DNA of 64,000 bases. Origin: Bacillota bacterium (GTDB lineage Bacteria; Bacillota; DTU025). The notes beneath the pieces are model-generated. The model was not told the DNA's origin, did no database searches, and saw nothing but the letters and a program-made list of their open reading frames with translations. The DNA is taken from assembly GCA_050951805.1 (NCBI GenBank), contig JBMNJT010000004.1:106120-170119 (forward strand), read 5' to 3'. The number at the start of each line of letters is the position of its first letter. The first letter of the stretch is position 1. Positions 23,085 to 37,840 of the stretch are shown here, in pieces. The position numbers were made by a program, and so were the translations under genes.

Positions 23085-23669
23085 TTACCCGAACAGTGAA
23101 AAAAGGTAGCTGAGGATGGCTCCAACAACGGCGCCGACCACGTATTCCATGACCTTGCTTTGCCAGCTGCGCTCCTTGGCGAGGGCTGCGTCGAGCTCCT
23201 CGATCATCCTCGATTGCTCTGCTATGGCTCTTGAGAGAACCTCAATCTGGTTCGGCTGGTCTGCCAGGGCCTGCACGAGCACGCGCGAGATATCGCTTGC
23301 AGTCATGGGTTCGACAGAAGACCCGACTTGAGCATACGCGCTGCTGTCGGCGAGGACGAGACTGTCGGCTTCCTCGACAGTTATCACAGCGACGTCTTTT
23401 CCTTCAACATTTACGATTTCGAAAGAAGTTCGGGGCTTAGGCTCCAGTTTTTCGAGGGCGTCTACATACAGTCTTCGCGCCTTTTTGATGTCGGTGCCTA
23501 TGATTTCGCCTGACTCTTCTATGCCAACGAGGATCGTGCCGCCAGACGTGTTGGACAGGGCACCTATCAGCCTCGACAGGTCCTTAGGCTTCTTGGGCTT
23601 AGCTCTGAATTCAACCTTTTCATTCTGCCCCTGGGCGATGAGATCGCAAATCTTTTGAGACTTTGTCAC
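23085..23669 (-). CDS. AlbA_2 (Schlafen-like / divergent-AAA) putative DNA-binding domain protein with a C-terminal transmembrane helix
   Basis: The N-terminal region (E..KVEFRAKPKKPKDLSRLIGALSNTSGGTILVGIEESGEIIG) matches the AlbA_2 signature. The C-terminus VVGAVVGAILSYLFSLFG is hydrophobic. Confidence 0.55.
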   Translation of the reverse strand: MTKSQKICDLIAQGQNEKVEFRAKPKKPKDLSRLIGALSNTSGGTILVGIEESGEIIGTDIKKARRLYVDALEKLEPKPRTSFEIVNVEGKDVAVITVEEADSLVLADSSAYAQVGSSVEPMTASDISRVLVQALADQPNQIEVLSRAIAEQSRMIEELDAALAKERSWQSKVMEYVVGAVVGAILSYLFSLFG

Positions 23670-24852
23670 ATTAATGGCCCCCTAAGCAGCACATTGCGCC
23701 AATACCATTTCCAGTTCTGCCGTGAGCTTACTCAATTTCCAGTAAGAATGCAAGCAGTTGATTCCTGCCCCAAAGTTTGCCAGCCGCATACCGTTGGAGC
23801 GGGGCAAGGTCAACCATCTTGTCGGCCTGTCCGTATGATCCCGGCGGCACGATCATCTTCTCCCCCGGACGCCAATCTGCCGGGGTGGCCACTTTCTGCC
23901 CGTCAGAAGTGTGCACGGCGATGAGCAGGCGCTTGATCTCGTCGAGGGTAGGCCTATGTCACCCGCTGACGGCTGAATCATCCCTCACTTCTTTGCCACC
24001 TCCATCTTCAGATCGACAGATGAGCGGGAACTTGATTTTCTCTTTGATGGTTCTTGGCCAAGCGATGTGGCTGAAGAGTATGCCCACTTGTTCTCGTAGT
24101 CATTGGCGAAAGAGACTGTGCCACGGCTTCGAAGCTCGGGGCCTTCTCTTTGATAAGCGGAATCCGCACGGTCTCTTCACAACAAGTTGAATTGGCGGTT
24201 TCTCTCATATCTGCTTTTCACACAGTCTGCACACGCCACGCCATTATACATGGATTGCGTGGCGCGGCCGATCTCTTCAATGGTTGTTATCAATCCCATG
24301 TCGTCAAGAATCCACAAGGTTCGATAGACTGTAGTTCTCGTGGACGTGGTGATATATGGTTTCCGCGTCGGTGCGGTCACTCGACTCTGCTAATTCCTCA
24401 CAAGAATCACTAATATGTCTGGGGTGTCAATGGTTGCCTCCATTCTTATTGTCCCATCTGCTGTTTGTGGAAAGCACAATTGAAGAAGCTTGCTCGACTT
24501 CATGCATGCTGGTTTAGCTGCCTGATCCCGAATCGAACTCGGAAAGGTTAGAGGATTCCAGAGCTAACCTTTTTGCAATGCAGATGCTCCTCAGCCATCT
24601 CCTATTAGAACCTGAGGCGGGTATGAGACCCCTTCCATCGCGGTGATGTTCAAACTGAATCTGCTATGGCTATTGCCAGTTGGCGCCTTAATCTCAGACC
24701 GATGCAGATATGGAGGATTATGGTGATATACCTCGAAATACACGTTCATGGTCCTGGGCTTGGGCGCACAACAAAGTGCAGAGGCACCCGAGTCCATGAA
24801 CACGAATCTTAACCTTTGGGGTTAATATACGATTTGACTTGGGGGACGTAAT

Positions 24853-25097
24853 TTGCGTATAATGTTCAGGGATGAAGACCTCCAATTGGCATGCACAGAT
24901 CCTGATGTTGGCAGACGTAGATGGGGAGAATCTTGTGCAAAGGTGATCAGGCGAAGACTTGATCAGCTTCGGGCTGCAGAAACACTTGAAGACATGAGGA
25001 ATCTGTGGAATGTCCGCTGCCGCGGAAACCGGATGGAGGTTTGGACTGGACGAAAGTGAAGGAAATTGTCGTAATTGGGGTGGTGGACTACCATTGA
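24853..25097 (+). pseudogene. Decayed HigB-family (RelE/ParE superfamily, COG3549-type) toxin gene with an internal deletion and frameshift
   Basis: Frame 1 gives MRIMFRDEDL ... AKVIRRRLDQLRAAETLEDMRNL ... RGNRMEVWTGRK and then stops. A different frame (25014..25097) gives ...KEIVVIGVVDYH*, matching the canonical HigB C-terminus (...DYH). The central SIRIN..WRI segment is missing. Confidence 0.55.
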
Positions 25098-25114
25098 CTG
25101 AGAAGGGCATAGGA

Positions 25115-26203
25115 ATGTACGAGTACGTGCCAGATGTGGTATCACCGCCTGGTTCCACGCTGCTGGAGACGATTGAGGCGTTGGGGATGACTCAAGCAGA
25201 ATTGGCACGGCGAATGGGCCGTCCGGTAAAGACGATAAATGAGATTATCAATGGGAAAACCGCAATAACTCCGAAGACGGCCTTGCAGCTTGAACGCGTT
25301 TTAGGCATTCCTGCACATTTCTGGAGAAATCGTGAGGAGCAGTATCAGCAGTATCTTTTGGCCCAAAGGGACGAAAAAGAGCTGGCTGAGTATAGCTATT
25401 GGCTGGAGGAGATACCGTTCAGGTATCTTGTGACAAGTGGCTGGGTAAAGGATGGCGCGAATGATGCCGAACGAGTCAGGCTTGGCTTGGAGTATTTCGG
25501 AGTAGCGTCAGTCGATGCATGGCGCTCGACATGGGGTTCGCCGACCGCAGTTTATCGCCGGTCGCCGGTTTTTGAGGCCAAACCCGGAGCGGTGGCCGCA
25601 TGGCTGCGGAAGGGTGAGATAGAAGCAAGGACAATAGAGTGCAGCCCTTACAGGAAGAAGGCGTTTGCTTCGGCTCTTCAGGATATTCGTATTCTCACAG
25701 TGGAGCAGCCAGAGGTTTTCATTCCGAAAATGCAATCCTTGTGTGCCCAAACTGGTGTGGCAGTAGTTTTCGTGCCTGAAGTGCCCGAAAGCCGCGCATC
25801 GGGTGCTGCTCGATGGTTGAACAGACAGAAGGCCCTTATTCAGCTGAGCTTTCGCTACAAGACCGACGATCAACTTTGGTTTACATTTTTCCATGAAGCA
25901 GCCCACGTACTGGGCGGCTACCAGAGCAGTGCATTCATTGACAATTTCGAACCCAACGATCTCGCATCAGAAGTAGAGCTTGAGGCGGATCGCTTCGCTG
26001 CCGACATCCTCATGCCGCCGACTGAGTATCGCAAGTTTACCGAAGGCATTCAGGGAGGGCGAATAAGTCGGAACAAGGTTTCAGCATTTGCCAAGTCAAT
26101 CGGCGTGGCCCCGGGAATTGTTGTCGGACGTCTGCAACATGATGGGCTACTGCCGTACACTCATCTTAACGGGCTCAAAGTGCGTCTGAAATGGCCTACA
26201 TGA
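25115..26203 (+). CDS. HigA-like XRE-family HTH antitoxin fused to an ImmA/IrrE (COG2856) zinc metallopeptidase domain
   Basis: The N-terminal HTH (GMTQAELARRMGRPVKTINEIINGKTAITPKTALQLERVLG) is followed by a peptidase domain with the HExxH motif (FFHEAAHVL). Confidence 0.7.
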   Translation: MYEYVPDVVSPPGSTLLETIEALGMTQAELARRMGRPVKTINEIINGKTAITPKTALQLERVLGIPAHFWRNREEQYQQYLLAQRDEKELAEYSYWLEEIPFRYLVTSGWVKDGANDAERVRLGLEYFGVASVDAWRSTWGSPTAVYRRSPVFEAKPGAVAAWLRKGEIEARTIECSPYRKKAFASALQDIRILTVEQPEVFIPKMQSLCAQTGVAVVFVPEVPESRASGAARWLNRQKALIQLSFRYKTDDQLWFTFFHEAAHVLGGYQSSAFIDNFEPNDLASEVELEADRFAADILMPPTEYRKFTEGIQGGRISRNKVSAFAKSIGVAPGIVVGRLQHDGLLPYTHLNGLKVRLKWPT

Positions 26204-27091
26204 TTTGAGGCTTGATCCGTTTTCCGGCGTATCTGCCGATGACTAGATTGTGTCGCATCACAGCCACACCCCTGTTGGGTTTTTGACTTTCCCCTGGATC
26301 TTGAGTCTAAAGACATATTCCATGCGCCTATTGACGTCCTTGTTGGGATCCCTGACATAGCTCTGAATTGCCTAAGCACAGATTTCTGCATCCATTTTTG
26401 TTGAATGCCTGATTGCATCACAGACGGCCCGTCGTGCCATTGACCACCTGCTCGGAAAGCCCAATGTTGATGAGACGGGGCTTAACGAAGTATGCCTTTA
26501 GAGCGGGGTATTCAAGCTTAAGTTTCGTTTTGTTGATCAGGTGTCAGGGGTTTGGTCAATATACCCGTGAAAGTGGAGTGCGCTGTCCATGCAGAGCATT
26601 GCTTCGGGAATCAGCCGGAAGATGATCTTCATCTCTGAGGCCGTCTGCGGTCCACTCGTAGACCACTCTCTTTACTGCATCATGTTTGCTCATAGAAAAC
26701 ACCTCGTCAAAAGTATCCGTGGCATCTATAAACAAGCTGACACTTTTGACAAAGCAGACGGCGGCTGTGGCGTCAATGGTGAAGCGCAGGTGCAGGTTAA
26801 TAGGCTAGCCATTACGGGGGCCACGTGCTCTGTCAGGCAGACAAGTTCAGTGGATCCATATTTGAGCCCGGTTTTCTATTGTGAGGCCAATTTCTGCATT
26901 GAGAATATCCACAACAAGGGAAGTACCAGTTTGACGTTTCCGGTGGGGCAAGTCCATATTTGCGCAGGGAGCATCCTCCGCAGTCAGAGGCAGGGATAGG
27001 ATGTCAACCGAATTGGGCAGCATCACAAAAAAGGAAACCTGGGGGCAAATGAACCAGCATAGCGCCAGCGATTAGGGAGTCCGGGGCGAGG

Positions 27092-27275
27092 CATATCTGG
27101 TCAGGTTTGCGGATAGCTTCGTGGTCTGCTTCGAGCACAAGCAGGATGCAGAACGGTTTTATCGAGCGTTGGTGGAACGTATGGGGGAAATTCGGGCTGG
27201 AGCTTGCGGAGGAAAAGGTGCGCTTACTGCTCTTCGGCCGATTTGATATTCATCTCAAGCTATTGGGCTCTTGAT
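27092..27275 (+). pseudogene. Remnant of a reverse transcriptase (group II intron/retron-type; fingers-palm motif 5-7 region), frameshifted and truncated
   Basis: ...LVRFADSFVVCFEHKQDAERFYRALVERMG, then after a +1 shift KFGLELAEEKVRLLLFGRFD. This parallels the F/YxDD-...-LGLEL.PEKTRL region of bacterial RTs. FADS replaces the catalytic YADD. No upstream RT domains are present. Confidence 0.4.
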
Positions 27276-27400
27276 TCTGCGTCCACCTGGGGATGGATCT
27301 TCAGGATAAAAAACGCTTCGCCCTGGCAGTTAGCCTGGGCGAAGCGGCAGTTGCGCGAGAAATCGAGGTTCGAGTCAGTACTCATCTGACGGTTATTGGC

Positions 27401-28231
27401 TCAATAGACTAGATCCTCTACAGAATTCATGACAATGTCAGGTCGGAATTCTATCGGGTAAGCATCTGGAGCGCTCATGTCGAGGCCCTTGGAATTTCCG
27501 CTGAGCACGAGAATGGTGCTCAACCCCAATCGATTCCCGGCAAGGATATCTGTTTCAAGAGTGTCGCCTACAATGGCGCACTCCGCTGCGTCGAGCCCAC
27601 TTTGTTCCAAGGCCATTTCCAGCAACAGGGTTCCAGGTTTTCCTACGATTACGTCAGGATCGCGATTAACCATGGCCGTTATAGCTGCTACTATTGCCCC
27701 CGCTCCTGGTTCCAAGCCGTCTTGCGAGGGAACTGTTGGGTCACAATTCACGGCTACAAAACGTGCACCTGACTGGAGAACGCGCAGGGCACATGTGAGC
27801 CGAGCAAAGCTTAGATCATTATCCTTGCCGGCAATGAGGTAGTGGGCTTTTTCAGGATTTCTGGTTGAGGCATTACGCGCATCCAGGCCAGCAGCTAACG
27901 CCTCTTCCAGAAGCCCTTCAGATCCCAACACGTATGTTACGGCGCCCGGCATCTGACTTGCCACATACTTTGCTGCACATTCGCTTGCTATGAATACTTC
28001 GCTGCTGTCAACGTCCAGACCCATGTGCTTGAATATTGAAAGGCATTTCGCCTTTGAGCGCGAGCTAGTATTGGAGACAAACATGAGTTGTTTGCCTTCT
28101 CTCCTGAGCTGTTTAAGCGTATTCGCTACGCCTGGAATGGGATGGTCGCCAAGCCACAACACTCCGTCGAGGTCAAACATGAAACCTTTGATGTCTCTGA
28201 TAACGTTGTTCCTGTCAGTGATCTGTGTCAT
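27401..28231 (-). CDS. HAD-superfamily subfamily IIA hydrolase (NagD/p-nitrophenylphosphatase-like)
   Basis: Motif I FMFDLDGVLW, FVSNTSSRS, and C-terminal GDTLETDILAGNRLGLSTILVLSG (motifs III/IV). Confidence 0.75.
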   Translation of the reverse strand: MTQITDRNNVIRDIKGFMFDLDGVLWLGDHPIPGVANTLKQLRREGKQLMFVSNTSSRSKAKCLSIFKHMGLDVDSSEVFIASECAAKYVASQMPGAVTYVLGSEGLLEEALAAGLDARNASTRNPEKAHYLIAGKDNDLSFARLTCALRVLQSGARFVAVNCDPTVPSQDGLEPGAGAIVAAITAMVNRDPDVIVGKPGTLLLEMALEQSGLDAAECAIVGDTLETDILAGNRLGLSTILVLSGNSKGLDMSAPDAYPIEFRPDIVMNSVEDLVY

Positions 28232-29315
28232 CCCCAATTCTCTTCCCTGTTTCTGCATCATAGATGTTGATCTGTGAGCGGTCCAGCTCAAGCCAGACTT
28301 GCTGGTTCCCTTGGAATGACGTGCCTCTGTCGGCACGAATAACGATCTCGATTCCGTTTGAGTCGGCATATACGAGCACCGATGGACCAACTGGCAATGT
28401 TGCGTATACCACAGCTGGAATCCGACCGGGCTGATTATCGTTGCAAAGAGTCAGGCCCTCAGGCCTTATGGCTAGCACAACTTGGTCTGGCCAACCAGGT
28501 TGAGCTGGCCAAAGTACTGTATCACCTACAGCTAGGTAAGGTGAGTCTCCGTTGCGAACGACCTTTGCGTCTAGAAAGTTAGTCTGAGGGTTGCCGGTAA
28601 ACTCCGCGACGAAATGCGTGGCAGGACGTTCATATACGTCTTCTGGGGGCGAATACTGCTCAAGCTGTCCATGGTTCATCACGGCAATCTTGGTTGAAAG
28701 CGTGAGCGCCTCTTCTTGGTCGTGCGTCACGTAGACTACAGTGGTGTTTGCCTCCTGATGCATCCGTTTCAGGCTTGCTCGCATCTGCATTCTGAGTCGA
28801 GTATCCAGATTTGATAGCGGCTCATCCATCAGAAGCAGCTCGGGTTCGACTATTACCATGCGGGCTAGTGCTACGCGTTGCTGTTGGCCTCCTGAAAGCT
28901 CTGATGGATACCGATCGGCTAGGTCTTCTAACCCTACCTGCTTCAGAGTGCCAAATACCTTGGCCTCGATTTTATCGCGTGGCATTTTTTGCTGAACGAG
29001 ACCGAATGCCACGTTGTCAAAGACTGTCATATGCGGCCACAGAGCGTAAGATTGAAAGATTATCCCCAGGCCACGGGCGGCTGGAGGAAGGTTGATTCCC
29101 TGACTTGCGGAGAAAACAAGTTTCCCGTTTATGTATATGTCTCCAGCGTCGGGATCTTCGAGCCCTGCAATCATTCTGAGCGTGGTGGTCTTCCCACAGC
29201 CAGACGGTCCGAGCAAGGTAGCGAAATCCCCTTTGCCGATGTCGAAACTGAGGTTGTCCACAGCCTTTACTCCTGGCCATTCCTTGGTTACGCCGACCAG
29301 TTTGACTGCTTCCAT
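28215..29315 (-). CDS. ABC importer ATP-binding subunit (PotA/FbpC/MalK-type with a C-terminal TOBE-like domain)
   Basis: Walker A GPSGCGKTT, Q-loop, LSGGQQQRVALARM signature, Walker B LLLMDEPLSNLD and H-loop. Confidence 0.85.
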   Translation of the reverse strand: MEAVKLVGVTKEWPGVKAVDNLSFDIGKGDFATLLGPSGCGKTTTLRMIAGLEDPDAGDIYINGKLVFSASQGINLPPAARGLGIIFQSYALWPHMTVFDNVAFGLVQQKMPRDKIEAKVFGTLKQVGLEDLADRYPSELSGGQQQRVALARMVIVEPELLLMDEPLSNLDTRLRMQMRASLKRMHQEANTTVVYVTHDQEEALTLSTKIAVMNHGQLEQYSPPEDVYERPATHFVAEFTGNPQTNFLDAKVVRNGDSPYLAVGDTVLWPAQPGWPDQVVLAIRPEGLTLCNDNQPGRIPAVVYATLPVGPSVLVYADSNGIEIVIRADRGTSFQGNQQVWLELDRSQINIYDAETGKRIGDDTDH

Positions 29316-29317
29316 AT

Positions 29318-31126
29318 CTACATGCCTCCTAAGCCTTCAGCAATATCCATGTTTTGCCAAGCTTTAATCGCCCAGGTCATTAATAGTACCAGAAGGGTGA
29401 GAAGCACGGTCATGGCATTGCTGAATTGCGTGTAGCCCACTTCTATGTACCTGTAAGTAAGTGTAGTAAGCATGCGATTGGCGGGCGTAACCAGCAGTAT
29501 GTATAGACTGAGTTCGCGCATGCTGGTGATAAGGACTATGAGCGCACCAGACACAAAGCCACTCTTTGTTAGCGGAAGCATTATCCGGCGCATGCGCTCT
29601 CTCCATGACGCGCCAAGAATTACTGCTGCCTCTTCTAGCTCGTGAGATACTTGGAGCATCGATGATACGCCGGATCGCACGGTATAGGGCAATTGCTTGG
29701 CAATGGTAACGAGAACTAGTAAAGTGAATGTGCCGTAGAGTGCGGGGATCGGGCCTCGTCGCACGGCAAACAAAGTCAGGTACAGGGCTCCAAAGACTAT
29801 GCTTGGCACGAGCATCGGGGCGAATGAGATCTGCTCAAGCATGTGAGCGATCGGTGAGTTCCGCGATTTCACTACGACATAGCCAATCAGCATTCCGAAT
29901 AGGCCGCATATCAACGCTGAAATAAGTGATAAGCGGACGCTGTTCCAAGCCGCTCCCCGTACTGCTTCGTTACGGAGGATACCCGGTTCACCAGCAGCAA
30001 ACCTGGGATTGCTGGCGCCTATCCAGTAATGCGACGAGAGATTGGATATGCTGTAGTCGCCTGCGTTCAGGCAGAAACTGCTCCATACAAGGAAGCCCAG
30101 AGGGAACACGGATACCATGAACAGAAATATCAAAGTGATCACTGCTATGGGCGTATTCCACTTTCCCAGCTTTACTTTTCGCGACTTTACTCCTTTTCCC
30201 CCTATTGTGGCGTAACTGCGACGAGAGCTGATGAGCTTCTGGTTGAGATACAGGCCAGTGCTGGATATCAACAGCAGAACAATTGCTAGTATGTAAGCTT
30301 GTGCTTCTCTTTGAGTGTGAATGAGAGAGTATATCTGCGTCGATAAAGTATAGTATCTAGCAGGCAGGCCAAGGATTGCCGGAGTTCCGAAAGTGCCCAT
30401 GGAACGCGCTATGCCTAGTAATGCAGTGGAAAGCAAGGCGGGACTTACTATGGGCATGGTTATGTGACGCCCTATGAACCGTTGGTTGGCGCCGAGGATC
30501 TCTGCTGACTCTTCTAGCTGAGAATCTACAGTAGACAGAGCTCCGGATATCAATAGATAGCCAAAGGGATAGTAGTGCAAGCCCAAGGTAATCATTATGG
30601 GGATCGGACCGTAAACCAGCCACTCAGGAGCATTTTTGCCTGTGAGGAAGAAAAGTAGACCATCCGGCAATGCAACAGCACTGTTCTGGAAGATCTGTAG
30701 CCAAGACAACGACAATACCCAAGAAGGGAGGATATAAGGTACAATGGCTAAGGCGTTGATAAGCTTAGCCCACCGAATGTCAGTGCGCACTACTAGATAT
30801 GCCAGGAGAGTGCTTATAAGCAGTATGATGGCTACGGCGCCAACAGTGATTGTAAGAGTATTGAGCAATGGTTTGTAGAAAACAGATTTTGCGAAATCTC
30901 CAGTTAGCATGCGTCGCCAGTGATACAAAGTGAATTTGCCAGGCTCTACATTTTCACCCTGGATGCGAAGATCGCCAGTCCCCCATACAAAGGTTCTGCA
31001 TATGAGTGAGATGAGCGGAACTATTATTAGGTAAGCCAAAATGATCAAGAACAAGATCGATAAGATCGATTCTGGCTTACGAAGCTGATTCCATGCCTTG
31101 CGACCGTGTAATTTCACATTGTTCAT
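29318..31126 (-). CDS. ABC importer permease, fused tandem two-domain type (FbpB/AfuB-like Fe(III) or polyamine family)
   Basis: 602 aa with two sets of about six TM helices and two EAA-like loops. Located between an SBP gene and the ATPase gene. Confidence 0.75.
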   Translation of the reverse strand: MNNVKLHGRKAWNQLRKPESILSILFLIILAYLIIVPLISLICRTFVWGTGDLRIQGENVEPGKFTLYHWRRMLTGDFAKSVFYKPLLNTLTITVGAVAIILLISTLLAYLVVRTDIRWAKLINALAIVPYILPSWVLSLSWLQIFQNSAVALPDGLLFFLTGKNAPEWLVYGPIPIMITLGLHYYPFGYLLISGALSTVDSQLEESAEILGANQRFIGRHITMPIVSPALLSTALLGIARSMGTFGTPAILGLPARYYTLSTQIYSLIHTQREAQAYILAIVLLLISSTGLYLNQKLISSRRSYATIGGKGVKSRKVKLGKWNTPIAVITLIFLFMVSVFPLGFLVWSSFCLNAGDYSISNLSSHYWIGASNPRFAAGEPGILRNEAVRGAAWNSVRLSLISALICGLFGMLIGYVVVKSRNSPIAHMLEQISFAPMLVPSIVFGALYLTLFAVRRGPIPALYGTFTLLVLVTIAKQLPYTVRSGVSSMLQVSHELEEAAVILGASWRERMRRIMLPLTKSGFVSGALIVLITSMRELSLYILLVTPANRMLTTLTYRYIEVGYTQFSNAMTVLLTLLVLLMTWAIKAWQNMDIAEGLGGM

Positions 31127-31221
31127 TGGCTCAACCTCCGCCAGTGCTACATTGGCTAAGGCGGATAGTTCCCAAGACGGGCGCCTCCGCCTTAGCCTTC
31201 AGATTTCTTGGTAGTTGTCCA

Positions 31222-32442
31222 TTAGTTGATGTTTATCATCCACCATTCCTGAACTTCGGCCGAAGTTTTCCATATCCCGATCGGGTCAAGCATCCAGAAC
31301 TTCATGCTCTTTAGAGGCAAAGAAAGATTGGGCAAAAACTCGTTCTTCGGCTCGGCCAGCATGTCAGTGCGGGCTGGCCAATTACCCACTATAAAGAACG
31401 GTTTCATGCCAAGTCCCCCGTATTGATCTCCGAACAAGTATTTGATCAGCAGTTTAGCAGCGTTAGGATGCGGAGCCTTGTATGTGATGTTCATAAGGCT
31501 GGGATATAGTAGCCCCACAGTAGGCGTGATATTAGTTGTCGCCATGAGCTTGAGGCTGCCTCTAGCTGGGTCTTCTGCGTATCCTAGGCTGGAAAAGGGG
31601 ATTGATATCCCAATCGGCGGATTCTTGTTAGTAGGATCGCCCACTACGTTTATTAGATCTGTGTGTCGAGAGTATATGCGAGGTTTGTTTGCGATGATGC
31701 CTTTGAGAAGTTCGTATCCTGCATTTGGCGTGGTGAGACGAATGGGGCGTCCAAACACTCGCTGGTAATCACTGGCTAGATCGTCGGCGTTGAGCACTAT
31801 GGTTGTGATCAGGTCCAGACTAGATGCATCATTCACAGGATCAACCATTGCTATTTTGCCGCGCCACTCAGGCTTGGTCAGATCCCACCAGCTGTTGATG
31901 GGGCATTTCGGGTAGACCTTGGAATTATAGAAGATGGTTCGCGACTCGTATCGCTGGGCAACCAAGGGCTCGCGAAATGCCCGCGGGATCACGGATTCGA
32001 GCTCGGGCGGGTAGAACGGGAACAACATGTTCTTGTTGTAGAGGAGATGGAGTTGGTCCGCATAACCTGAGGCATGAAGTATGTCAGCATTGTATACGCC
32101 TGCTAATTGTTCTCGTTCGACCTTCTCGATGGCGCCTGTGGTTCCCAGCTCGTATACTTCCATGGTCACGCCCGGATAGAGTGATTCAAACTCTGACTTT
32201 AAGCTGATCGTTCGCGAGGAACTTGTGTAGATCACCACCTTGCCTTCGCGTTTAGCTGCTTGGTAAACTTTGTCCCAATCTACCTTAGCAGGTTGGTAGG
32301 GGCCGATCTCAACTTGCTTAAGCCATGCATCCACATCAGCAGGAAGTTTGGGGGCAGAATAGGCTCGTGGTGCCCCAACGTACGCTCCAATCATTCCAAC
32401 GAATACGCACAAGATTACTAACTTGATTATCCGTTGACTCAT
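31222..32442 (-). CDS. ABC transporter periplasmic/extracellular solute-binding protein (family 1; Fe(III)/polyamine-type)
   Basis: N-terminal signal/anchor MSQRIIKLVILCVFVGMIGAYVGA, then a typical SBP fold (GKVVIYTS ...). Confidence 0.7.
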   Translation of the reverse strand: MSQRIIKLVILCVFVGMIGAYVGAPRAYSAPKLPADVDAWLKQVEIGPYQPAKVDWDKVYQAAKREGKVVIYTSSSRTISLKSEFESLYPGVTMEVYELGTTGAIEKVEREQLAGVYNADILHASGYADQLHLLYNKNMLFPFYPPELESVIPRAFREPLVAQRYESRTIFYNSKVYPKCPINSWWDLTKPEWRGKIAMVDPVNDASSLDLITTIVLNADDLASDYQRVFGRPIRLTTPNAGYELLKGIIANKPRIYSRHTDLINVVGDPTNKNPPIGISIPFSSLGYAEDPARGSLKLMATTNITPTVGLLYPSLMNITYKAPHPNAAKLLIKYLFGDQYGGLGMKPFFIVGNWPARTDMLAEPKNEFLPNLSLPLKSMKFWMLDPIGIWKTSAEVQEWWMININ

Positions 32443-32466
32443 ACGATTCCCTCCTATTTTTGATAA

Positions 32467-33321
32467 TCATAGACAGTCATAGCGTTGGCGTAATGTATCT
32501 AAGCGACTGAGCTGCTCTACAGCATCATCGCCTTTTGCGAGCATAACGCCGAGGATCAATGCATCTACCAACGCAAGGGGGGCCCCCATGGGTCTGAAGG
32601 CCTCCATCGGACCGCGTTGAACAAGGAATACTTGGGTTGCCAGAGGATGCATTTTGGAATCAATGAGATCGGTGACGAGCAGGCTTTGTCCACCTTCTTG
32701 ATTGAGGTGTTCAAGTATAGCCATGGCTTCTAAGGTTACCCGGCGGAAAGCAAAAACTATAGCCAGATCTTCTGATCCTGCTTGGAATATCTTGTCGAAC
32801 AGACGCCTTCCGGTCTGGTTTACGCGGACTACCTGGCAACCAAGGCGCGATAGCCAGAAATCCGCAAGCACTGTAATGCTGGCCGGAGCGCCCTCGCCGA
32901 AAACAATCACTCGCCGAGCGCTGATTATTCTTTGCACTGCTTCTTCAACTTGTGCATCATTGACGCTTTGAAGGAGAAGCTGCAAGCTTTTTATGGTTTC
33001 ACTTACTACCATGGTCAATGGGCCTGCATTATCCGATTGTGCGTGGACCATTGCAGCAACTCTGCTGGATGAGCGAAACTGCTTCAGCAGTTCTGTTTGT
33101 AGCTGCTGTCGCATGTCGGGGTATCCGTTGAATTCGAGCATCTGGGCAAATCTGACTACCGTGGCCTCGCTAAGATCCATGCAACAAGCGAGATCAGCAC
33201 TGGACATCATGGCGACTTCCGGCATGTTTTGCAGTACGAAGTCGGCGAGACGCTGCTGACTCTTGGTCATAGAAGCATATTTTGAATGGATTCGCTCAGT
33301 GACAATCCCGAGGTTTTCCAC
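32467..33321 (-). CDS. RpiR/MurR-family transcriptional regulator (HTH_6 + SIS domain)
   Basis: N-terminal LTKSQQRLADFVLQNMPEVAMMSSADLACCMDLSEATVVRFAQMLEFNGYPDMRQ, with a C-terminal SIS phosphosugar-binding fold. Confidence 0.8.
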   Translation of the reverse strand: MENLGIVTERIHSKYASMTKSQQRLADFVLQNMPEVAMMSSADLACCMDLSEATVVRFAQMLEFNGYPDMRQQLQTELLKQFRSSSRVAAMVHAQSDNAGPLTMVVSETIKSLQLLLQSVNDAQVEEAVQRIISARRVIVFGEGAPASITVLADFWLSRLGCQVVRVNQTGRRLFDKIFQAGSEDLAIVFAFRRVTLEAMAILEHLNQEGGQSLLVTDLIDSKMHPLATQVFLVQRGPMEAFRPMGAPLALVDALILGVMLAKGDDAVEQLSRLDTLRQRYDCL

Positions 33322-33572
33322 GCTAATTCACCATCCTGTTGGAGAATGGCCGACATGGGCTAAAGTTTATATTCAACATATCTTGCAACATTCCTTCTTG
33401 TGCAAGATATATTACATATACATGGCTGGAGGAGACGAATGCCTGATAGATAAAGTTCATTTTGATGATAACAGGGCAACAGAGCGTTGGGTCGGGTGGA
33501 CCGATTAAGGAAAAGGAACACCTCCGGGGCGCACCGCCCCGAAGATGTTCCTTTTATGCTTTACCTTAAAGC

Positions 33573-35522
33573 TTACACCGCTTCATCGTACGCCCCGGCA
33601 AATTGGCTGTTGTAGAGGTCGTAGTAGAATCCGCGGGCTGCCATGAGCTCCTCATGGTTGCCCTGCTCCACGATGCGTCCATTATCCATTACCAGGATAG
33701 TGTCGGCATTGCGTATTGTCGAGAGGCGGTGGGCTATAACAAAGCTTGTTCTGCCACGCATCAGCTCTGCCATGGCCTCTTGTATCAGTACCTCGGTACG
33801 GGTATCCACCGAGCTTGTAGCCTCGTCGAGAATGAGGATATCGGGGTCGGCGAGGAAAGCTCGGGCGATTGTGAGCAGCTGTTTCTGCCCTTGGGATATG
33901 TTGGATGCCTCATCGCCCAGCTCGGTATCGTACCCTTTAGGCAGAGTCCTGACGAAGTGGTCGACATGGGCCGCGCGGGCCGCGGCCAGTATCTCCTCTT
34001 CGGTGGCATCCTCGCGCCCGTAGGCGATGTTGTCGCGTATGGTCCCGTTGAAGAGCCATGTGTCCTGAAGGACCATCCCGAATAATCTCCTCAGGTCGTT
34101 TCGGGCCATGTCGCGGATGTCAATGCCGTCTATGGAGATGCTTCCCCCATCCAGCTCGTAGAATCTCATCAAGAGGTTGACTACGGTGGTTTTGCCAGCG
34201 CCAGTGGGCCCGACTATGGCTACTGTCTGTCCTGGCTTAACCTCGAGGTTCATGTCCTCAATCAGCGGCACATCAGGCTTATATCTAAACGAGACGTTCT
34301 TGAAGACCACATGGCCTTCTACCTTTTCCAGGACTACAGGGTTTTCGGTGTCAGGCGTCTCCTCTTCCTCGTCGAGGAGCTCGAACACGCGCTCAGCTGA
34401 GGCCACTGTTGACTGAAGCACATTCATGATGCTAGCTGTCTGGACTATCGGCTGAGTAAACTGCCTTGAATACTGGATGAAGGCTTGGACGTCTCCGAGG
34501 GAGAGGACGCCATTGGCGACCTTCATACCCCCTATCACGCAGATTGCCACGTAGTTTAGGTTATTGATGAACTGCATGGCCGGCTGGATAGTGCTTGAGA
34601 TAAAGTGCGCCTTGAAGCTGGCCTGGTAGAGGCGGTCGTTTTCCTTATCGAACTCGTCGATCGCCTCTTGCTGGCGGTTGAAGGCCTTTACTATCCGATG
34701 GCCGGTGTACATTTCCTCTATATGTCCGTTGAGCGCGCCGGTGCTGTCCCATTGCTCCGCAAACTGCTTCTGGGAGCGTTTGGCGATGAACAGCGTGACG
34801 ATAACGCCCAAGGGCAATACTACCAGAGCAATTGCGGCAAGCAGCGGGCTGATGGAAAACATCATTATCAACACGCCGATTACCGTAAACGTCGCCGTAA
34901 CCAGCTGCGTCAGGCTTTGCTGAAGCGTGCTGGCGATGTTGTCTATGTCATTTGTCACCCGGCTCAGGATCTCTCCCCGCGTGTTGCTGTCGTAGTATTT
35001 CAGAGGCAGCCTCCCAAGTTTTGCATCCGCCTCTTTGCGCAGGCTGTACACGGTGCGCTGGGAGATTCCGGCCATGATGTAGTGCTGCAGCCAACTGAAC
35101 AAGGCGTTGGCGATGTATATTCCGACAAGTATGAGCAGTATTCGCTTGATGGCCTCGAAATCGACGCCGGCGCCGGGGACGATGTTCATTCCCGCCACCA
35201 TATCGGCCATCTGGTCCTTGCCGGCAGCCTTGAGCATGCTAATGATCTGTTCCTTGCCAAGTCCAGGAGGAAGCTGCTTCCCGATGACTCCTTCAAAGAG
35301 GATGTTCGTGGCTTTGCCCAGGATCTTCGGCCCAGCAATGGTCAGGACGACGCAGACTATGGATAAAACCATGACGATGATGAGCTGCGTCTTGTGCGGT
35401 TTGAGATACCCGAACAGCCTCTTCAACGACCCCTTGAAGTCGCGCGCTTTTTCTCCGGGCATCATGGCGCCTCGGGGACCATGTCCTCGCTGGCGTCGTG
35501 CTGCTGTTTTCTCTTCACTCAT
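33573..35522 (-). CDS. ABC exporter, fused permease-ATPase (type I exporter; heterodimer partner B)
   Basis: Six-TM N-domain, Walker A GPTGAGKTT, signature LSQGQKQLLTIARA, Walker B ILILDEATSSVD. Confidence 0.85.
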   Translation of the reverse strand: MSEEKTAARRQRGHGPRGAMMPGEKARDFKGSLKRLFGYLKPHKTQLIIVMVLSIVCVVLTIAGPKILGKATNILFEGVIGKQLPPGLGKEQIISMLKAAGKDQMADMVAGMNIVPGAGVDFEAIKRILLILVGIYIANALFSWLQHYIMAGISQRTVYSLRKEADAKLGRLPLKYYDSNTRGEILSRVTNDIDNIASTLQQSLTQLVTATFTVIGVLIMMFSISPLLAAIALVVLPLGVIVTLFIAKRSQKQFAEQWDSTGALNGHIEEMYTGHRIVKAFNRQQEAIDEFDKENDRLYQASFKAHFISSTIQPAMQFINNLNYVAICVIGGMKVANGVLSLGDVQAFIQYSRQFTQPIVQTASIMNVLQSTVASAERVFELLDEEEETPDTENPVVLEKVEGHVVFKNVSFRYKPDVPLIEDMNLEVKPGQTVAIVGPTGAGKTTVVNLLMRFYELDGGSISIDGIDIRDMARNDLRRLFGMVLQDTWLFNGTIRDNIAYGREDATEEEILAAARAAHVDHFVRTLPKGYDTELGDEASNISQGQKQLLTIARAFLADPDILILDEATSSVDTRTEVLIQEAMAELMRGRTSFVIAHRLSTIRNADTILVMDNGRIVEQGNHEELMAARGFYYDLYNSQFAGAYDEAV

Positions 35523-37258
35523 GCGACTTCCTCCTCTGAAAGCTGTGAGAGGACGATCTCACGATATACGGAACAGAGCTTCATCAGTTCCTCATGTGTC
35601 CCCATTCCCACGATCTCGCCTTTGTCGAGCACGATTATGCGTTCGGCATTCATGATAGTGCTCACACGCTGCGCCACGATGAAGACTATGGCGTCATCCA
35701 CTTCGTCATTGAGCGCGGCGCGAAGTGCGGCGTCGGTCTTGAAGTCAAGTGCGGAGAAGCTGTCATCGAAGACGTATATCTTCGGCCTTTTCACCAAGGC
35801 TCGCGCGATGGCTAGGCGCTGCTTCTGCCCTCCCGAGAAGTTCGTTCCTCCCTGAGAGACTGGGGCTTCAAGCTGTCCGGGCATCTCGGCGACGAAGTCG
35901 GCTGCCTGGGCTATGCGCAGGGCATGCCAGAGTTCGTCGTCGGTGGCATCGCGCTTTCCGTAGCGCAGGTTGCTGGCAATTGTCCCGCTAAAAAGGAAGG
36001 CTTTCTGTGGGACAAAGCCTATCTTGTTCCTCAGGTCCTCCTCAGGTATTTCCCGTATGTCTACTCCATCTATGAGCAGGCTGCCGCCGGTCACATCGTA
36101 GAAGCGGGGGATGAGGTTGATCAGAGTGGACTTCCCGCATCCTGTGCCGCCGACGATGGCGGTGGTTTCGCCCGGATAGGCGATGAAGGAGATTCCGCGC
36201 AGGACCGGAGTCTCTGCGCCCGGGTATGTGAACTCTACATCCCTAAATTCGACGCTCGCGTCGGAGTCGGCGGTGCCTGGGTTGAGCGCGGCCGGCGCCT
36301 TGGGGGCGGAGATAGACGGCTCAGTCTCGAGAACTTCGAGGATTCGTTCGGCCGAGGCACTGGCCCGCGGGATCATGATGAACATCACTGTGGCCATCAT
36401 CACCGCAATGAGGATTTGCATGGTGTAGGCGATGAAGGCTGTAAGGTTTCCTATGGGCATGGCCCCGCTGTCGATTCTGTGTGCGCCGAACCACATAATG
36501 GCTGCCATGGAGATGTTGACTATGAGCATCAGCAGCGGCATGGTGATGGCGACCATCCTGTTGATCTTCAAGGCTGTGGTTGTGAGATCGAGGTTGGCCT
36601 CATCGAATCGCGCCTCTTCGTAGTCGGTTTTAACAAAGGCTCTGATGACCCGGACTCCGGCAAGCTTCTCGCGGACTACCTGGTTGAGCCTGTCTATTTT
36701 TACCTGCATCGACTTGAATAGCGGCAGGGCGCGTCGCATGATCACACCGATGACCACGGCCATTACCGGCACAATGATGATGATGGATATGGACAATGGC
36801 ACGTCCTGGCGGAGAGCCATGATGATGCCGCCGATGCACATTACAGGGGCGGAGATCATGACGTTTAGGGTTATGAGGACTGCCATCTGTACCTGCTGCA
36901 CGTCGTTGGTGGTGCGGGTTATGAGTGAGGGTGTACCGAATTGGTCCACCTCTGCCTGGGAAAAACTCTGCACCTTGCGGAAAACGTCGCTCCTGAGGTC
37001 TCGGCCGAAGGACATTGCTGTTTTCGATCCCCAATATACCGAGACCACGGAGCATGCCGCCAGCAGTAAGGTGACGAGCAGCATGAACCCGCCTGTCTTC
37101 AGGATGTATTCGGTGTCGCCCCTAGCGATGCCGTTGTTGATGATATCGGCATTGAGGTCGGGCAGGTACAAATTGGCAATAGCCTGGACCAGAAGGAGTG
37201 CCATTACGAGGAACAGCTGCTTTTGGTAGGGCTTGAGGTATTGAAGTAGTTTTGTCAT
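35519..37258 (-). CDS. ABC exporter, fused permease-ATPase (heterodimer partner A)
   Basis: Six-TM N-domain, GGTGCGKST, LSGGQKQRLAIARA, IYVFDDSFSALD. Overlaps the downstream partner by 4 nt. Confidence 0.85.
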   Translation of the reverse strand: MTKLLQYLKPYQKQLFLVMALLLVQAIANLYLPDLNADIINNGIARGDTEYILKTGGFMLLVTLLLAACSVVSVYWGSKTAMSFGRDLRSDVFRKVQSFSQAEVDQFGTPSLITRTTNDVQQVQMAVLITLNVMISAPVMCIGGIIMALRQDVPLSISIIIIVPVMAVVIGVIMRRALPLFKSMQVKIDRLNQVVREKLAGVRVIRAFVKTDYEEARFDEANLDLTTTALKINRMVAITMPLLMLIVNISMAAIMWFGAHRIDSGAMPIGNLTAFIAYTMQILIAVMMATVMFIMIPRASASAERILEVLETEPSISAPKAPAALNPGTADSDASVEFRDVEFTYPGAETPVLRGISFIAYPGETTAIVGGTGCGKSTLINLIPRFYDVTGGSLLIDGVDIREIPEEDLRNKIGFVPQKAFLFSGTIASNLRYGKRDATDDELWHALRIAQAADFVAEMPGQLEAPVSQGGTNFSGGQKQRLAIARALVKRPKIYVFDDSFSALDFKTDAALRAALNDEVDDAIVFIVAQRVSTIMNAERIIVLDKGEIVGMGTHEELMKLCSVYREIVLSQLSEEEVA

Positions 37259-37288
37259 TCAGAAACTGACACCTCTCATGTAAGCAAA

Positions 37289-37840
37289 TCAAAGCTCCTG
37301 TGATATGTTGGAACACAGGGCGCTCAGGAGCCTGTCGAATTCTTCGCGGTCGCCGGAAGGCATTTTGCCGAAGGTGGCGTTGACGAAGTCCGCAAGCGCC
37401 TCGTTCATCTCTTCCTGTATTTTGCGTCCTGCATCAGTCAAGTATATGCGGGACAGTCGTTGGTCCTCCTCATCCGTTTTTCGGACTATCGTGCCTGCAG
37501 CCTCCATCTTCTGAAGCATCACGGTTACCGTGGATGACGCCACATGAAGCTTTCGGGCTAGGTCCCGCTGGGCAATGCCGTCATGACCGCTGAGGACCCA
37601 GAGGCATCCGGCTTGTCCGGGGTAAATTTCCTTTTCAGACAGCACTTTGAAGATTAGCTGGCGATACAAGCGCATTGCCTTGAAAAAGGAATGGAAGACG
37701 CGCAACGATAGAGGATCGACTCCATAAAGCTCTGTGACGGGCGTGGGATCATATGTCGATGAATGCACTGTTAGACCCCCTTTCAGCGATCGTAGGCCAG
37801 GCCCCGAGCACATAATCGTTGCCATGCTAATAGGTAGCAT
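37289..37840 (-). CDS. MarR-family transcriptional regulator
   Basis: wHTH region GQAGCLWVLSGHDGIAQRDLARKLHVASSTVTVMLQKMEAAGTIVRKTDEEDQRLSRIYLTDAGR. Immediately upstream of the ABC exporter pair. Confidence 0.8.
   Translation of the reverse strand: MLPISMATIMCSGPGLRSLKGGLTVHSSTYDPTPVTELYGVDPLSLRVFHSFFKAMRLYRQLIFKVLSEKEIYPGQAGCLWVLSGHDGIAQRDLARKLHVASSTVTVMLQKMEAAGTIVRKTDEEDQRLSRIYLTDAGRKIQEEMNEALADFVNATFGKMPSGDREEFDRLLSALCSNISQEL

Follow-up and report, generated by a model that had tools for sequence, protein, structure and literature searches.

In a 64,000-nt stretch of the genome of a Bacillota bacterium (contig JBMNJT010000004.1; the whole stretch is called the window throughout), we analyzed a locus in which a broken higB toxin gene is followed by an intact gene, higA-M78, encoding a HigA-type antitoxin fused to an M78/ImmA-IrrE-like zinc peptidase. 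A preliminary description of this DNA had proposed that the toxin gene retains its N-terminus and its ...DYH C-terminus in different frames, and this was confirmed by DNA alignment to orthologous loci as well as by a profile of the HigB subfamily, which matched in two frames. Starting from TTG 24853, upstream of which a GGGGGA resembling a ribosome-binding site (RBS) can be read at 24841-24846, frame 1 encodes LRIMFRDEDLQLACTDPDVGRRRWGESCAKVIRRRLDQLRAAETLEDMR, followed by unrelated residues until a stop at 25059, and frame 3 encodes ECPLPRKPDGGLDWTKVKEIVVIGVVDYH and ends in the stop at 25097 (three-frame translation of 24853-25100). The remnant is a 68-amino-acid (aa) open reading frame (ORF) with an out-of-frame tail; an uninterrupted toxin ORF of approximately 90-115 aa is not present. 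The toxin-first gene order is kept, and the original higB stop (25095-25097) overlaps a TTG at 25094 (TTGA), a possible alternative start of the fusion gene, as is the case in the orthologous loci L002-L004.

The similarity of 24853-25097 to HigB, which the preliminary description had put forward, was recovered with one kind of profile and not with another. The Pfam family PF05015 (HigB-like_toxin) reached only E = 0.15 and 13 bits on the 68-aa ORF, compared to a cut-off of 27 bits, the 30-aa C-terminal remnant ORF had no Pfam match, and an NCBIfam search of both remnant ORFs gave no HigB match. A subfamily profile built from 63 intact partner HigBs, on the other hand, matched 24856-25023 over profile positions 2-57 (E = 4e-15) and 25008-25094 over profile positions 83-111 (E = 7e-11). 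Judged by these matches, the HigB homology of the remnant is certain, with the remnant itself staying below the curated Pfam threshold, and bases 24853-25097 are classified as a higB pseudogene.

The nature of the lesion is apparent from the orthologous loci. In L002-L004, whose fusion proteins (P0002 and P0003) are 80% and 79% identical to that of the window, an intact 111-aa gene with a PF05015 match is located directly upstream of the fusion gene and overlaps the antitoxin start by 4 nt. Alignment of the window to these loci (approximately 80% DNA identity) revealed a single 91-nt gap in higB, which equals the difference between the intact gene (336 nt) and the remnant (245 nt). Moreover, the hexamer CCTGCG is found at nucleotides 150 and 241 of higB in L002/L003, with a spacing of exactly 91 nt (the second copy reads CCCGCG in L003). 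A deletion of this kind between 6-bp direct repeats points to slippage or microhomology and is typical of replication slippage. Since 91 is not a multiple of three, the N- and C-terminal parts of the toxin came to lie in different frames. The same gap was identified in L001 (Logan ERR2642273), an independent short-read assembly from another sample that shares approximately 98% DNA identity with the window and encodes a 99% identical fusion protein (P0001). Therefore, the deletion is real and does not represent an assembly artifact; a sequencing or assembly error concealing an intact higB is further opposed by the length of the gap, which is unlike a homopolymer slip, and by the direct repeats flanking it, so that its probability is practically negligible. 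A programmed frameshift was considered as well and rejected, as the lesion is a 91-nt deletion common to the independent assembly. The retained higB codons show omega values of 0.23-0.36 relative to L002/L003, and because this reflects purifying selection over most of the divergence from these loci, the deletion appears to be recent, though older than the split between the window and L001.

The loss of the central segment, likewise part of the preliminary description, was borne out by the alignments: residues ~50-80 are deleted, and these hold the subfamily-invariant H57, L59, and R76 as well as the nearly invariant G65, P74, and L77. On the basis of published HigB work, H57 and R76 are regarded as catalytic-type residues. 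In alignments to PDB sequences, the deleted segment corresponds to the central, most conserved core of the solved toxins GraT (E = 7e-8) and Proteus vulgaris HigB (E = 4e-6). Since the deletion takes this conserved core and shifts the frame, the window higB can no longer yield a functional toxin. The candidate function of the 68-aa remnant peptide itself was rejected, since the remnant evolves at a neutral rate (1.9%, see below) and its start is lost in L001. A second copy of higB or of the fusion gene was not found in the 64-kb window.

The downstream gene, in turn, proved to be the intact fusion of a HigA-like helix-turn-helix (HTH) and a HExxH peptidase that had been proposed. HTH_3 matched (E = 7.5e-12), and the NCBIfam HigA family TIGR02607 (52.8 bits, cut-off 47.7; residues 12-76) and Peptidase_M78 (PF06114; E = 1.1e-7; 32.2 bits, cut-off 22; residues 233-311) both matched above their cut-offs, which places the window protein in both HigA (TIGR02607) and Peptidase_M78. 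The HExxH motif corresponds to HEAAH at 25892-25906 (residues 260-264) and is followed by a conserved E-x2-A-x2-FA-x3-L motif containing the Glu ligand E288; H260, E261, H264, and E288 were invariant in 27 family members. Across the 118 columns with at least 90% conservation, the window protein deviates at 3, all of them conservatively, and the range within the family is 1-11. Furthermore, an AlphaFold2 model of the protein (mean pLDDT 87.4, pTM 0.77) was compared to solved structures using Foldseek. Its N-terminal ~90 residues superpose on HigA of P. vulgaris and Escherichia coli (target TM 0.75-0.83; root-mean-square deviation 0.9-1.5 Å), and its C-terminal half matches CapP (7t5t, E = 2e-4 over 178 columns) and PprI/IrrE (8sln, E = 4e-3), with modest TM scores of 0.26-0.36 for the latter two, as only part of each protein is shared. 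Among the PADLOC models, PD-Lambda-2_B matched residues 20-343 with profile positions 68-376 of 402 (E = 8.9e-27), followed by capP (E = 7e-10) and weak partial matches to the RmrA models of RosmerTA (E = 1e-8 to 5e-3). Two loops of the model are poorly ordered: residues 271-283, directly after the HEAAH helix, and residues 141-150, which have low pLDDT and include R148, invariant in the family, within an A-(F/Y)-R motif. On the basis of the model, the loop at 141-150 is a candidate cleavable loop.

The coordinates given in the preliminary description were accurate, and the only refinements concern the possible antitoxin start at TTG 25094 and a 397-aa ORF from ATG 25010. The latter is the automatic gene call on a near-identical contig (P0001). 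Its N-terminal 35 residues come from a wrong-frame reading of the 3′ part of the higB remnant, and the call is an annotation artifact that arose from the deletion.

Upstream of the remnant, a palindrome was identified that represents a candidate HigA operator. The pattern TTAAC-N7-GTTAA occurs once in the 64 kb (24809-24825), compared to 0.02 copies expected, and in 52 of 66 family loci, which represent many phyla, TTAACC-N5-GGTTAA precedes the start of higB by approximately 25-45 nt. In the literature searched, this palindrome was not reported. A sigma-70-like motif is located 6-9 nt downstream of the palindrome, where it overlaps both the higB start codon and the RBS; it is found at the same position in L002-L004 and partly in L010, L016, L022, L024, L027, L040, L062, and L083. 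In other loci, a -35 element precedes the palindrome, whose right arm is overlapped by a TAATAT -10 element, and the TTGAC of the sigma-70-like motif could be a third, degenerate half-site. The window keeps the palindrome and the ribosome-binding region. The stop of the remnant ORF was read 35 nt before TTG 25094 and 56 nt before ATG 25115, and because the remnant ORF stops this early, the translational coupling of the fusion gene to higB is broken.

Features of the higB/higA-M78 locus and of the adjoining decayed genes, with positions counted within the window.
Feature	Positions	Strand	Remarks
Palindrome TTAACC-TTTGG-GGTTAA	24809-24825	+	Candidate HigA operator; presumably bound by the HTH
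Sigma-70-like motif TTGACT-18-TATAAT	24834-24863	+	11/12 match; TTGACA-18-TATAAT in L002-L004
higB pseudogene, 5′ part	24853-24998	+	Codons ~1-49 in the original frame; broken ORF continues to stop 25059
Deletion junction	24999-25007	+	91 nt absent compared to intact orthologues; remaining repeat copy now TCTGTG; from DNA alignment and blastn breakpoints
higB pseudogene, 3′ part	25008-25097	+	Last 29 codons and stop, in shifted frame
higA-M78 gene, intact	25115-26203	+	362 aa from ATG 25115; 369 aa if TTG 25094 is used
HigA-type XRE HTH domain	25115-25399	+	Residues ~1-95; HTH_3, TIGR02607, PDB profile matches to HigA proteins, Foldseek
M78/ImmA-IrrE-like zinc peptidase core	25730-26074	+	Residues ~206-320; Peptidase_M78, PADLOC, Foldseek
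Degraded 1-Cys peroxiredoxin pseudogene	23812-24208	-	tblastn of intact L002 peroxiredoxin: fragments in three frames; context, outside the module
Degraded Fur-family regulator pseudogene	24211-24399	-	tblastn of L002/L003 Fur: short fragments in two frames; context

In order to place the locus within its family, homologues of the fusion protein were surveyed. In total, 7,915 significant homologues of approximately 360-370 aa were identified, many of which are named "HigA family addiction module antitoxin" in their sources; the closest named relative is a protein from a metagenome-assembled genome of the Clostridia (66% identity), and the best match in a species genome showed 54% identity. A survey seeded with the fusion protein comprised loci from 80 species-representative genomes, 76 of which had enough upstream sequence, and spanned Cyanobacteria, Chloroflexota, Nitrospirota, Desulfobacterota, Bacillota, Planctomycetota, Verrucomicrobiota, and others. 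The intact HigB that had been sought at orthologous loci is thus not only found in L002-L004: approximately 66 of these 76 genomes carry it directly upstream of the fusion. In the remaining ~10 (~13%), higB is lesioned or absent, through internal stops (L008, L051, and L056), frameshifts (L052 and L081), truncations (L026 and L082), an internal deletion with frameshifts (L060), or the lack of any detectable higB (L028 and L084), and all ten keep a full-length fusion with HExxH.

A second survey, seeded with HigB, covered metagenome contigs, 58 loci of which had enough downstream sequence. An intact fusion was found downstream of HigB in 50 of them, and 8 harbored fusion lesions (L085, L114 and L117, L127, L143, L147, L154, and L160). 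In L154, higB is broken too; in the other seven, the fusion is damaged and HigB is intact. The N-terminal ~100-aa HigA part is spared by each of these fusion lesions. In L143 (2826-3786), an intact HigB is accompanied by a fusion in which QQVGH replaces HExxH and the C-terminus is truncated, i.e., by a natural peptidase-dead antitoxin. No conserved third gene was found downstream in 82 family loci, the largest cluster consisting of 4 ORFs from 3 loci.

Comparison across these genomes indicates that, in hundreds of genomes from many phyla, this HigB subfamily has the HigA-M78 fusion as its standard and ancestral partner. The suggestion that the fusion might be a local innovation or a consequence of toxin loss did not stand, as it is the standard partner across phyla and its architecture is already found in the literature (PMC2701414; PMC9519451). 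By contrast, the related suggestion that an ImmA/IrrE-type protease module was built into a toxin-antitoxin (TA) locus holds at the level of the family. The natural lesion patterns, together with the conserved palindrome, fit an assignment of HigB as the toxin and of the HigA domain as both antidote and sequence-specific autorepressor, and they likewise fit a peptidase part that would be dispensable for neutralization.

Descriptions of the architecture and of its association with RelE-family toxins date back to 2009, and the locus itself is ordinary. Makarova, Wolf, and Koonin reported that fusions of an Xre HTH to a COG2856 zinc peptidase are often encoded in operons with RelE or PIN toxins, and proposed a LexA-like, protease-controlled circuit (PMC2701414). 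The architecture beside a RelE-superfamily toxin is the same as here; their analysis was computational and concerned the whole class, so that the subfamily of a 111-aa HigB and a ~365-aa HigA-M78, the palindrome, and decayed copies were not singled out. Canonical HigBA modules (P. vulgaris, E. coli, and Pseudomonas aeruginosa; GraTA) share the toxin-first order, a RelE-fold HigB ending in ...DYH, the HigA HTH, and palindromic operators. However, canonical HigA comprises approximately 95-105 aa and lacks a peptidase, whereas the protein described here is extended by ~265 aa that include an M78 peptidase, and its toxin gene is a pseudogene.

The closest characterized defense system is PD-lambda-2 of E. 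coli (Vassallo et al. 2022, PMC9519451), in which, as here, a HigB-like first gene is followed by a second gene encoding a HigA-like Xre HTH with a C-terminal peptidase. However, PD-lambda-2 needs a third gene, C, which is absent from the window and not conserved in the HigB/HigA-M78 family. Furthermore, the intact orthologous HigB (L002) has no PADLOC match at E <= 0.01 and hence no match to PD-Lambda-2_A, the polarity of PD-lambda-2 (B toxic, rescued by A) is at odds with the natural loss pattern of the family, and the first gene of the window is dead. Because the C gene is absent and the A model unmatched, the module is not a PD-lambda-2 system. RosmerTA (Millman et al. 2022, bioRxiv 10.1101/2022.05.11.491447) is a defense TA pair whose antitoxin, RmrA, contains a Zn-peptidase and weakly resembles the window protein; the likeness does not extend beyond the HTH and peptidase domains, and its toxin, whose function is unknown, is a different one.

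Mechanistically, the intact family is best modeled on VapBC52 of Mycobacterium tuberculosis, whose antitoxin VapB52 has a toxin-binding domain at its N-terminus in addition to an HTH and an IrrE/CapP-like peptidase. Single-stranded DNA (ssDNA) triggers the self-cleavage of VapB52, which frees the toxin, and a phage-defense phenotype has been reported (Singh et al. 2026, PMC13273310). Nevertheless, its toxin is a PIN-domain tRNase instead of a HigB, domain order and details differ, the residue of its cysteine-switch loop is not conserved in the HigA-M78 family, and no close sequence relationship was detectable in PDB searches. Because the toxin differs, the module is not a VapBC system. Finally, in CapP/CapH, IrrE(PprI)/DdrO, and ImmA/ImmR, an M78 peptidase is paired with an XRE repressor and activated by DNA damage or ssDNA, upon which CapP and IrrE cleave their XRE partners. 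These are, however, pairs of proteins controlling other operons (CBASS, DNA repair, and ICEBs1, respectively), whereas here both activities are joined in one chain and the effector is the HigB toxin.

Taken together, we consider the window locus to be a recently inactivated copy of the widespread HigB/HigA-M78 two-gene TA module, with a probability of roughly 85%; it is an ordinary stage of gene decay and no new system. An intact module consists of a HigB-type (RelE-fold), mRNA-cleaving toxin followed by a translationally coupled, long antitoxin. In its intact members, the HigA domain would bind TTAACC-N5-GGTTAA, repress the operon, and neutralize HigB. The peptidase domain could act as a built-in trigger that, by analogy to CapP, IrrE, and VapB52, would be activated by a signal such as ssDNA arising from damage or phage infection. 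The activated peptidase may then cut its own antitoxin chain, upon which the toxin would be freed and the operon de-repressed. In the window, only the sensor-repressor half would remain, and the orphan antitoxin might at most regulate itself or could neutralize a related incoming toxin.

Several points weigh against parts of this interpretation. Our literature searches found no experimental study of a two-gene HigB and HigA-M78 system, so that activation, self-cleavage, and operator binding are drawn from analogy. Moreover, the family has no conserved cysteine in the loop after HExxH, and the "cysteine switch" of CapP and VapB52 may therefore not apply. Over-expressed Xre-peptidase of PD-lambda-2 was toxic alone and was rescued by the HigB-like protein, i.e., the polarity was opposite (PMC9519451). 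A role of the sigma-70-like motif as the higB promoter is doubtful and, as placed, seems impossible, because it overlaps the RBS and start codon. In addition, the survey loci are mostly metagenome-assembled, and some of the lesions could represent sequencing errors.

The question whether the orphan antitoxin is a mere relic or is kept by selection was approached by comparing substitution densities between the window and L001. The antitoxin gene differs by 8 substitutions in 1089 nt (0.73%) without indels, compared to 4 in 215 nt (1.9%, no indels) for the higB remnant, 18 in 1197 nt (1.5%) with 3 indels for the downstream non-coding sequence, and 3 in 486 nt (0.62%, no indels) for a functional HAD gene. 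When the antitoxin (8/1089 nt) is set against the dead flanks combined (22/1412 nt, 3 indels), the difference has a Fisher p = 0.066. Since the split from L001, the antitoxin has accumulated 4 synonymous and 4 non-synonymous substitutions (omega 0.31, binomial p = 0.10). These data are suggestive of continued constraint and far from decisive.

There is about an even chance that the whole locus is dying DNA and that the antitoxin ORF is intact merely for want of time. The higB deletion is recent by the omega values of the retained codons, the translational coupling to higB is broken, and the two largest ORF-poor gaps of the otherwise densely coding window (23670-25009 and 26204-27400) flank the locus, with the peroxiredoxin and Fur pseudogenes on the upstream side. 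In addition, L001 has suffered a further 783-bp deletion (window ~24105-24882) with ATTGG microhomology, as its positions 1-60 correspond to window 24052-24104 and then to 24883 onward. This deletion took the palindrome and the promoter-like motif as well as ~30 nt at the start of the higB remnant, with the antitoxin ORF still intact, and looks like continuing decay rather than domestication. On the other hand, a relic would not be expected to show a density of approximately half that of its flanks and near that of the functional HAD gene, to be free of indels next to flanks with three indels and the 783-bp deletion, and to keep all family-invariant residues. In its immediate context, the antitoxin gene thus stands as an intact island inside a patch of decay.

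The preliminary description had suggested that the antitoxin or regulator was domesticated after toxin loss. Selection of HigA-M78 after the loss of the toxin, either as a repressor that acts on its own and is cleaved upon a signal or as an "anti-addiction" antidote to related HigB toxins brought in by mobile elements, is unproven, and we give it only tentative credence. The halved substitution density stands on its side, as do the full length of the gene with only conservative changes at conserved columns, the omega value, the operator and RBS region retained in the window, and the toxin-less, intact copies in ~10 of 76 genomes. However, the numbers are tiny, and since the deletion is recent, an intact 1.1-kb ORF would not be very improbable under neutrality. 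Furthermore, L001 lost its promoter and operator along with part of the remnant at its 5′ end, neighboring genes are decaying as well, and the palindrome occurs once in 64 kb, so that no additional regulatory target is visible.

A reversed polarity as in PD-lambda-2, in which the Xre-peptidase would be toxic and the HigB-like protein its antidote, would imply that the window lost the antidote and kept the poison. The window protein does match PD-Lambda-2_B over its full length (E = 9e-27), yet the HigB-like gene was lost independently, with the fusion intact, in ~10 of 76 genomes as well as in the window, which is unlikely if the fusion were lethal at native levels, and fusion lesions beside an intact HigB always spare the HigA domain. 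Moreover, the catalytic-type residues His/Arg/...(D/E)(Y/T)H are preserved in the partner HigB, which is a homologue of the solved HigB/GraT RNases, the intact orthologous HigB is not matched by the PD-Lambda-2_A model, and the third PD-lambda-2 gene is absent. We therefore regard this reading as very improbable.

The locus lies on the chromosome, in synteny with its relatives. L002-L004 carry an intact Fur-family gene upstream of higB on the opposite strand, and L002 also has an intact, syntenic 1-Cys peroxiredoxin gene; the pair of oxidative-stress genes was lost in the window beside the TA locus. The decayed region is immediately preceded by a gene (23085-23669, minus strand) whose 194-aa product combines a Schlafen/AlbA_2 domain (E = 2.7e-16) with a hydrophobic C-terminus. 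On the other side, a 1.2-kb ORF-poor stretch (26204-27400) separates the antitoxin from a HAD hydrolase gene and contains three indels between the window and L001. ORF fragments at 26161-27274 had no Pfam match; as an unconfirmed impression of ours, those at ~27107-27274 (plus strand) resemble a group II intron reverse transcriptase and those at ~26537-26735 (minus strand) an AbiEi-like antitoxin. Further downstream, two ABC transporters and a MarR gene of L003 match window 33521-37593. Compared to L003, approximately 7 kb are inserted in the window between the TA locus and the conserved ABC-transporter pair (window 26240-33521; L003 2561-3452). This insert holds the HAD hydrolase gene and an ABC import operon (27401-33321), and L003 has a small DUF5105 gene instead.

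For the annotation of this genome, it follows that 24853-25097 should be recorded as a higB pseudogene and that the antitoxin starts at 25115 or 25094, with ATG 25010 being wrong. The locus as a whole is an inactive TA module in a patch of gene decay. It is a well-known course for TA loci to lose the toxin first and to be left with the antitoxin alone. That the orphan HigA-M78 is actively maintained, as a self-cleaving repressor sensing damage or phage or as immunity against related incoming HigB toxins, seems unlikely to us. If it were true, the toxin-less copies in ~13% of the surveyed genomes would mark a regular route by which protease-gated antitoxins turn into stand-alone regulators. The broader leads arise at the level of the two-gene HigB/HigA-M78 family, which is very common, and form a context for the decayed copy of the window rather than a property of it. 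They comprise a candidate TTAACC-N5-GGTTAA operator that spans phyla, a HigB that would act as the toxin with the first ~100 residues of its partner as the antidote, and, unlike in PD-lambda-2, no third gene, and they bear on how protease-gated antitoxins may work.

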